Part shown: piece by piece, positions 1 through 735 of the stretch
Layout of the letters: every line of letters begins with the position of its first letter
Position numbering within the stretch: position 1 is the first letter of the stretch
Sequence record: M38294.1
Length of the DNA: 735 bases
Direction: 5' to 3' (one strand)
Source: a phage
Notes under the pieces: generated by a model
What the model saw: the letters and a program-made list of their open reading frames with translations, nothing else
The model's database searches: none
Told to the model about the DNA's origin: nothing
Program-made: the position numbers and the translations under genes

Positions 1-1
1 C

Positions 2-250
2 CGCGCGGCTGATATTGTCCAAAACAGAGCTGTGGGGGAGAGTTGTCGAGAAAGAGTGCGGAAGATGCAAAGGCGTCGGCTATTCAAGGATGCCAGCAAG
101 CGCAGCTATCGCGCTGTGAGGATGCTAATCCCAAACCTTACCCAACCCACCTGGTCACGCACTGTTAAGCCGCTGTATGACGCTCTGGTGGTGCAATGCC
201 ACAAAGAAGAGTCAATCGCAGACAACATTTTGAATGCGATCACACGTTAG
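2..250 (+). CDS. 3' portion of a protein-coding gene whose start lies upstream of the window; hypothetical protein with an Arg/Lys-rich segment, ending ...LNAITR
   Basis: Seen in sequence: this frame is open from position 2 to a TAG stop at 248-250 (83 sense codons; I estimate about 2 percent chance for random sequence). The other two plus frames and all minus frames in 1-250 are broken by stops. The ORF-track start at 32 is a GTG with no recognisable Shine-Dalgarno upstream, so the real start is probably outside the window. Caveat: the first half uses many rare-type Arg/Leu codons (AGA, AGG, CGA, CGG, CTA), which weakens the call. Product not recognised. Confidence 0.45.
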   Translation, partial: RAADIVQNRAVGESCRERVRKMQRRRLFKDASKRSYRAVRMLIPNLTQPTWSRTVKPLYDALVVQCHKEESIADNILNAITR

Positions 251-289
251 CAGCATGATCGCCACGGATGGCACATATTAACGGCATGA

Positions 290-318
290 TTGACTTATTG
301 AATAAAATTGGGTAATTT
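290..318 (+). promoter_or_regulatory. Candidate sigma70 promoter: -35 TTGACT (290-295), 17-bp spacer, -10 TAATTT (313-318); predicted start site around 324-327
   Basis: Seen in sequence: TTGACT matches 5 of 6 positions of the TTGACA consensus. TAATTT keeps the three most conserved -10 positions (T1, A2, T6). The spacer is the optimal 17 bp and the surroundings (280-340) are AT-rich. Inference only; no extended -10 TG motif. Confidence 0.3.
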
Positions 319-324
319 GACTCA

Positions 325-516
325 ACGATGGGTTAATTCGCTCGTTGTGGTAGTGAGATGAAAAGAGGCGGCGCTTACTACCGATTCCGCCTAGTTGGTC
401 ACTTCGACGTATCGTCTGGAACTCCAACCATCGCAGGCAGAGAGGTCTGCAAAATGCAATCCCGAAACAGTTCGCAGGTAATAGTTAGAGCCTGCATAAC
501 GGTTTCGGGATTTTTT
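325..516 (+). ncRNA. Candidate small structured RNA of about 190 nt (unknown family), bounded by the predicted promoter and the intrinsic terminator
   Basis: Inference from sequence: promoter-like element directly upstream, terminator at the 3' end, and no credible ORF with an RBS in between. Stem-loops found by eye: 348-357 with 374-383 (10 bp including 2 G-U); 366-371 with 387-392; 394-398 with 424-428, enclosing 406-409 with 413-416; 437-441 with 446-450 (loop GAGG). Not matched to any RNA family I can recall. Confidence 0.25.
458..516 (+). terminator. Rho-independent terminator-like hairpin followed by a T-run
   Basis: Seen in sequence: AATCCCGAAAC (458-468) is the perfect reverse complement of GTTTCGGGATT (502-512). 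Pairing continues inward (470-472 with 498-500; 474-478 GCAGG with 491-495 CCTGC) to give an extended imperfect hairpin with a 12-nt apical loop (479-490). It is immediately followed by TTTTTT (511-516, the first two T's within the stem). Confidence 0.6.
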
Positions 517-735
517 ATATCTGCACAACAGGTAAGAGCATTGAGTCGATAATCGTGAAGAGTCGGCGAGCTTGGTTAGCCAGTGCTCTTTCCGTTGTGC
601 TGAATTAAGCGAATACCGGAAGCAGAACCGGATCACCAAATGCGTACAGGCGTCATCGCCGCCCAGCAACAGCACAACCCAAACTAGCCGTAGCCACTGT
701 CTGTCCTGAATTCATTAGTAATAGTTACGCTGCGG

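Follow-up and report, generated by a model that had tools for sequence, protein, structure and literature searches.

The transcription unit at the centre of the window, as we call the whole 735-base stretch of DNA analysed here, is almost certainly the late-gene regulatory cassette of phage lambda, composed of the promoter pR', the qut site, the 6S RNA and the terminator tR'. It is neither an orphan nor newly found: its product is lambda 6S RNA, which was sequenced in 1971 and whose established role, within the Q antitermination switch, is to be the late operon's terminated leader. Reading of the raw sequence alone recovered a real promoter-RNA-terminator unit that is still missing from genome annotation and from Rfam; what it rediscovered is one of the best-studied regulatory units, and the unit as such adds nothing new. 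The cassette does not explain, however, why the leader's middle part is so strongly conserved and structured, because P22-type phages run the same switch without this core. Very probably, the core belongs to a wider family of structured RNAs that is not in Rfam and is apparently undescribed. A covarying core that moves between Q types, and that has relatives linked to DUF3800 genes, makes the old question of 6S RNA function experimentally concrete.

Identity and architecture of the cassette

End-to-end alignment places the whole window on lambda 44260-44999 with 98.2% identity, and base-by-base alignment reveals no difference from lambda between window positions 319 and 571, that is, from 5 nt before +1 to 54 nt beyond the terminator. 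The cassette pR'/qut/6S RNA/tR' corresponds to J02459 44552-44780, and the 6S RNA itself to lambda 44587-44780, with identical sequence. About 24 phage records, lambda included, match the window over its full length equally well, as do prophages of 220 complete E. coli genomes. In the phage and E. coli collections searched, 98.2% was the highest identity of any record, and no observation speaks against the identification as lambda.

Q-dependent late cassettes are arranged in the order Q gene, PR', sigma-dependent pause element, terminator and late genes (PMC9388147). The same architecture is seen here (Table 1). An antiterminator gene of the PF03589 family lies immediately upstream, window 2-250 matching this Pfam family with E = 2.3e-11 and aligning to lambda Q residues 126-207; it is followed by a sigma70 promoter with a Q-binding element (QBE) between -35 and -10 and by an intrinsic terminator that separates the promoter from the late genes. 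Downstream, outside the window, lambda and all close relatives carry the genes S, R and Rz; according to the lambda annotation, S starts at lambda 45186, about 190 nt past the window, with R and Rz next. The Q stop codon precedes the start site by 74 nt, in agreement with the spacing of about 75 nt from the preceding coding sequence given in the first-pass annotation of this DNA.

Table 1. Features of the window, with coordinates counted from its first base
Feature	Coordinates	Strand	Basis and details
Antiterminator gene Q, 3' end (codons 126-207, stop 248-250)	1..250	+	lambda Q alignment
Late promoter pR'	290..318	+	-35 TTGACT 290-295, 17-nt spacer, -10 TAATTT 313-318
Q-binding element (qut/QBE)	296..315	+	TATTGAATAAAATTGGGTAA, between -35 and -10
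-35-like TTGACT	317..322	+	directly upstream of pause element; read from sequence
Start and sigma70-dependent pause element	324..332	+	+1 = 324; AACGAT +1 to +6, then GGG discriminator-like
Lambda 6S RNA, 194 nt, terminated at tR'	324..517	+	lambda identity, literature
Conserved structured core	349..450	+	covariation, covariance model
Core P1	349-357/374-382	+	covariation
Core P2	394-398/424-428; inner pairs 402-403/418-419, 406-409/413-416	+	covariation
Core P3	433-438/445-450	+	covariation; loop (A/U)GAGAG
orf-64, 64 codons (probably not a gene)	358..552	+	lambda-record annotation; phrog_23692, function unknown
Intrinsic terminator tR'	458..516	+	outer stem 458-468/502-512; inner 470-472/498-500, 474-479/490-495; U-run 511-516
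Read-through late transcript, start	518..735	+	lambda annotation; leads to holin gene S

The promoter had been described beforehand as an orphan, near-consensus sigma70 promoter. It is indeed present at the predicted place, the pattern TTGAC-N18-TANNNT occurring once in the window against 0.01 occurrences expected and in only 3 of 200 shuffles, but its quality was overstated: the -35 hexamer fits the consensus at 5 of 6 positions, while the -10 hexamer TAATTT does so at only 3 of 6 (4 of 6 for lambda's TAAATT). A stricter consensus promoter scan of the window accordingly returned no promoter, a false negative caused by this weak -10 match. The promoter is not an orphan either, as it is the documented late promoter of lambda (PMC4005639), annotated as 'similar to coliphage lambda PR'' in HK630 and as 'P late or P R'' in P22. 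The predicted start, between 324 and 327, includes the literature +1, which falls on window 324 (PMC4005639).

In wild-type pR', AACGAT occupies +1 to +6 and is followed by GGG, with a pause at +16 (PMC4005639). Window 324-332 reads AACGATGGG, as in lambda, so that the sigma-dependent pause element is intact in the alignment, and the pause at +16/+17 corresponds to window 339-340. The coordinates of the QBE are those of record annotations only; the 'Qut site' features of HK630 and mEp213 are given as TATTGAATAAAATTGGGTAAA, and the element in the window is one base shorter than lambda's, the deletion lying at the QBE/-10 junction. From its position, we infer that the TTGACT at 317-322 may be the relocated site of sigma region 4. 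The promoter-QBE-pause block as a whole is kept in lambda, P22, epsilon34 and mEp213. The possibility that the segment is simply the 3'UTR of Q, devoid of an internal promoter, was rejected, pR' being a documented internal promoter.

At the other end of the unit, the strong intrinsic terminator that had been proposed is borne out by a long, interrupted 55-nt hairpin (458-512; -26.9 kcal/mol, z = -6.0) followed by six U; none of 200 shuffles was as stable. The record of phage O276 annotates a terminator at about 459-517. A simple terminator scan of the window did not detect tR', which is a false negative explained by a loop of more than 8 nt. The distance from the end of the -10 hexamer (318) to the start of the terminator (458) equals the roughly 140 nt predicted, and the 194-nt RNA starting at 324 ends at 517, next to the predicted 3' end near 516. 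The description of the interval as dense in stem-loops also held: the 194-nt transcript folds with -66.6 kcal/mol (z = -3.15 against shuffles), and three of its helices are backed by covariation. In relatives, tR' is swapped for other intrinsic terminators. Two loci (L054:1267-1463 and L118:185-378, corresponding to about window 469-501) carry the interior of the tR' hairpin in reverse-complemented form, flanked by the CCCGAAAC/GTTTCGGG arms; this inversion is natural and leaves the hairpin intact.

Lambda identity, the register of the elements, the terminator fold and the finding that Q-lambda-type phages conserve the promoter/qut/pause block come from the present analysis, whereas the pause, Q loading, the nozzle and Hfq binding are taken from the literature. 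On this combined basis, sigma70 RNA polymerase initiates constitutively at pR', at window 324, and pauses about 16 nt on, owing to the re-binding of sigma70 region 2 to AACGAT, a -10-like sequence of the non-template strand. If Q protein is absent, polymerase escapes from the pause and stops at the tR' hairpin and U-run, freeing the 194-nt 6S RNA, which accounts for the presence of this RNA in lysogens. Q, encoded just upstream, binds the QBE between -35 and -10 once it has accumulated and touches the paused complex; in the resulting Q-loading complex, sigma region 4 is shifted, presumably onto the TTGACT adjoining the pause element. Q and NusA then form a nozzle on the RNA-exit channel, by which terminator hairpins are kept from forming, and polymerase passes tR' into S, R and Rz, and subsequently into the head and tail genes. 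In the presence of Q, the same 194-nt sequence is therefore the 5' leader of the late mRNA. Q has been described to bind its 13-bp QBE as a monomer, via a helix-turn-helix body and a zinc-ribbon arm, to contact sigma region 4 after its relocation to a -35-like site beside the pause element, and to build the nozzle with NusA (PMC9388147); Q-dependent read-through of tR' is known for the lambda sequence (PMC9388147, PMC4005639).

The first-pass annotation had taken the unit for an unannotated small RNA gene. This was correct insofar as a real, discrete and abundant RNA is made that lacks annotation; the RNA is, however, the known lambda 6S RNA, whose function in trans is hypothetical. In lambda lysogens the pR' transcript is an abundant, short 6S RNA (PMC7547250). 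A recent preprint reports bands of about 194 and about 121 nt, the former also in lysogens, with levels of the primary transcript comparable between the lysogenic and the lytic cycle (bioRxiv 2024.10.31.621285). Among the matches listed for RefSeq E. coli genomes (413 genomes carrying the RNA), none has any feature annotated at this place, and in GenBank lambda records orf-64 is the only feature annotated within the 6S RNA. The Rfam search proposed beforehand gave no family match for the window: among the 4227 models of Rfam 15 (cmscan, E <= 10), the only hit was a chance match to CRISPR-DR24 (window 401-422, minus strand, 14.4 bits, E = 9.5). ARAGORN found no tRNA or tmRNA in the window.

A conserved structured core in the 6S RNA

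The cassettes of P22, epsilon34, mEp213 and HK544 have the Q family and the promoter-QBE-pause block in common with lambda, at about 86-91% identity over window 280-346, and they also possess an intrinsic terminator downstream. The P22 record annotates P late, qut, the RNA 5' nucleotide and a t late 'antiterminated by gene 23 protein', with the terminator 30-60 nt from the start. In these P22-type relatives of Q-lambda type, the leader spans only some 60 nt and has no structured core, whereas that of lambda carries the core.

To survey the distribution of the core, IMG/VR was scanned with a motif from the RNA body, which yielded at least 120 loci and 93 unique segments; a second seed led to more divergent relatives. 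Compensatory changes, which the first-pass annotation had suggested looking for, are found among these relatives: in a structure-aware alignment, 15 of the 32 core pairs vary on both sides (8 of 9 in P1, 3 of 6 in apical P2 and 4 of 6 in P3), a count to be read in the light of core-derived seeds, an alignment fitted to the model and a modest number of independent events. Core cells are paired in 98% of cases, compared to 87% in shuffles and less than 49% with slid partners, and the covariation score is 0.363, where shuffles reach 0.139 and slid controls no more than 0.093. With a covariance model of the core, all 56 body-carrying loci searched gave full-length matches of 60-135 bits, and P22, epsilon34 and mEp213 gave none. 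Many of the invariant pairs are G-U, which assigns the structure to the plus strand.

Several blocks of the core are invariant, namely GAGGCGGC, CCGCCUAGUUGGU, CUUCG, CUGGnACUCCAACC and GCUGAGAGGU. GGCGG (367-371; helix 366-371) and CCGCC (387-391; helix 387-392) are likewise invariant and can pair with each other. The resulting helix is either knotted with or in competition with the covarying P1, and single-sequence folds flip between the two; GGCGG/CCGCC may thus form a pseudoknot or a helix alternative to P1, a choice on which covariation is silent because both strands are invariant. The variable positions 399-401, 410, 420, 430, 439 and 450 are spaced by about 10 nt. This spacing is probably explained by the loops and bulges of the RNA model, into which the variable positions fall; a pattern on one face of the DNA helix is the less probable alternative.

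The body (about 349-450) sits behind several different leader starts: a lambda-type promoter, three other promoters beside longer genes of the Q-lambda family, Q21/DUF1133-type genes, and, in one class, an HNH endonuclease ORF that ends at +4. It precedes at least five different intrinsic terminators. The HNH class comprises about ten unique sequences (L063, L023, L039, L114 and related ones; about window 280-327), in which an HNH + AP2 endonuclease ORF ends exactly at +4 and takes the place of the lambda-type promoter, as if a homing endonuclease had inserted itself where pR' transcription starts. A search of the divergent relatives against Rfam 15 (cmscan, E <= 1) gave no match at the element, and nothing relevant was found when the literature was searched for stretches of the core.

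Among the relatives, a compact, AT-rich class stands alone: its core homologues have a promoter-like sequence of their own and are ended by P3 and a U-run. They match the covariance model as full-length homologues, with 60-85 bits and E = 1e-11 to 1e-17. In 11 of 12 compact loci (L139, L141, L143, L145, L151, L153, L154, L172, L180, L188 and L191), a gene for a DUF3800 protein (PF12686) of 267-274 residues follows the RNA directly, in tail-to-tail orientation. These proteins are 73-100% identical and match the PADLOC candidate PDC-M04A (E = 7e-34) and phrog_3732. One RNA-DUF3800 module (L139) adjoins ParM/StbB plasmid-partition genes. A weak match to the Rfam sar RNA (25.9 bits, E = 0.17, under the gathering score) was seen at L145:1075-1141, which belongs to the DUF3800 locus but lies off the element; it is unrelated to the latter.

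Possible functions of the core

The literature is explicit that lambda 6S RNA is without an assigned function (PMC7547250) and that its role still awaits determination (bioRxiv 2024.10.31.621285). It seems possible, though doubtful, that beyond serving as a leader 6S RNA acts in trans as an Hfq-dependent sRNA that base-pairs with host or phage mRNAs, like StxS. In Shiga-toxin phages, StxS is likewise a lysogen pR' transcript ended early at tR', bound by Hfq and processed to a shorter form (PMC7547250), and thus sets a precedent for a pR'-tR' transcript with targets in trans. For 6S RNA, a single preprint reports co-purification with Hfq, a processed form of about 121 nt, and RIL-seq partners of which several are E. 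coli RNAs and one is an early RNA of lambda (bioRxiv 2024.10.31.621285). The Rho-independent terminator with its U6 tail and the conservation and structure of the core fit such a role, and, with orf-64 not conserved, any selection falls on RNA or DNA. StxS, however, has proven targets in stx1AB and rpoS (PMC7547250), while lambda 6S RNA has none so far, neither study reporting a regulated target or phenotype (PMC7547250, bioRxiv 2024.10.31.621285); sequence similarity between the two RNAs is absent, according to the preprint. Moreover, the conserved blocks are long and lie partly within helices, with covarying stems around them, a kind of conservation that is commoner in folds binding a protein or ligand than in short single-stranded seeds, and P22-type phages do without the core.

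A second, rather unlikely explanation starts from the compact relatives, and would make the 6S core an orphan copy of the partner RNA of a two-gene DUF3800 module; this copy, expressed from pR', might serve as a decoy or antidote against DUF3800-based defence, or as a shared cofactor. DUF3800 genes are known to pair with structured RNAs: eleven unrelated structured RNAs adjoin them in either orientation, several with terminators and all with unknown functions (Weinberg et al. 2017, PMC5737381). An RNase H-like fold is predicted for DUF3800 itself, which is also found in type VII retrons and in some Cas12 loci. The motifs described so far, DUF3800-I to -XI (in Rfam 15, e.g. RF02969 and RF02968), match neither the window nor the compact relatives. 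The latter nevertheless resemble them in their covarying fold, highly conserved nucleotides, 3' terminator and DUF3800 gene on the other strand. The lambda copy shares the covarying structure, but it lies inside the Q cassette and has no DUF3800 gene nearby; none was found within the fetched flanks of the lambdoid late-leader loci, lambda included, as would be expected of an orphan.

The frequency of the tail-to-tail arrangement and the match of the neighbouring protein to a PADLOC defence candidate speak for this explanation. Yet the link is purely associative, 'PDC' denotes a candidate only, and homology between RNAs is no proof of a shared function. The compact sample is also small and partly redundant, L139, L141 and L143 being identical in the region shown and the DUF3800 proteins of L153, L172, L180 and L191 being 95-100% identical, and the loci were found via a lambda-derived sequence seed. 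If the explanation were true, the lambda copy is expressed constitutively from pR' to work with or against such systems, and 6S RNA, for which none has been found since 1971, would have a function.

Still somewhat less probable, and in our estimate unlikely, is a role in which the conserved core, instead of working as a free RNA, serves the read-through late mRNA in cis, for instance by stabilising it from the 5' side or by offering a site for processing. The leader does form the 5' end of every late transcript, the processed form of about 121 nt is seen chiefly during the lytic cycle (bioRxiv 2024.10.31.621285), and in lambdoid phages the core is always located between the promoter and the lysis genes. 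One of the nearest known systems, IsrK of Salmonella Gifsy-1, is described as acting in cis on the longer transcript (PMC7547250), which sets it apart from 6S RNA; no Rfam match to IsrK was found in the window. A function of this type is weakened by the compact relatives, because these are stand-alone RNAs of about 110 nt that stop at a terminator of their own, lie convergent to the gene next to them, and have no downstream mRNA to act on. It also sits uneasily with the P22-type phages, which manage without the core.

That orf-64 is a small protein gene and the RNA structure incidental is highly improbable: although the frame is annotated in lambda and related records and forms a PHROG, its ATG is missing in 56 of 94 unique homologues, about 70 of which have an in-frame stop at codon 28, relatives carry 1-nt indels, no well-spaced Shine-Dalgarno sequence is found just before the ATG, and the frame spans the terminator, so that it could be translated only from read-through RNA. 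Variable columns are distributed 37/43/42 by codon position, without the third-position excess expected of a coding sequence, and a hidden small protein was rejected on these grounds of conservation. The earlier statement that the interval holds no ORF with a plausible ribosome-binding site needs a qualification, as a 64-codon ORF is annotated there but is not conserved.

Private changes in this copy

Compared to lambda, the window contains 13 changes: 6 bases are substituted, 1 is inserted and 6 are deleted. They are located at window 4, 9, 18, 106/107, 120, 239, 260, 272/273, 289/290, 313-315, 572 and 685/686. Twelve of them are private, occurring in none of 30 unique full-length homologues, and where natural polymorphism exists the window has the lambda allele. 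Within Q, the inserted T at 18 and the deletion after 106 constitute a +1/-1 pair that leaves the frame open and re-frames residues 131-160, the zinc-ribbon arm including E134, C144 and C147. The arm comprises residues 114-152 and contacts the QBE and sigma region 4 (PMC9388147); the frameshift pair, if real, probably inactivates Q.

In the promoter region, one A is lost from the -10/QBE junction (TAAATT to TAATTT) and 'AT' is lost just upstream of -35. The -10 deletion variant was absent from 185,579 species-representative genomes, from the 93 unique IMG/VR segments and from the 30 unique full-length homologues. Together, the private -10/QBE deletion and the Q frameshift pair would, if real, be expected to weaken or abolish the switch, and this copy might not function as the cassette model describes. 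The 13 changes look like read or assembly noise, or deliberate perturbation, rather than natural divergence.

About 20 assemblies from unrelated phyla (L155-L190; Arthrobacter, Oceanobacillus, Bradyrhizobium, Planctomycetota MAGs and others) contain DNA that is 99-100% identical to lambda, on contigs that are short, of low coverage or about 48.5 kb long, and this is evidently contamination with control DNA. The window is noisier than any of these assemblies.
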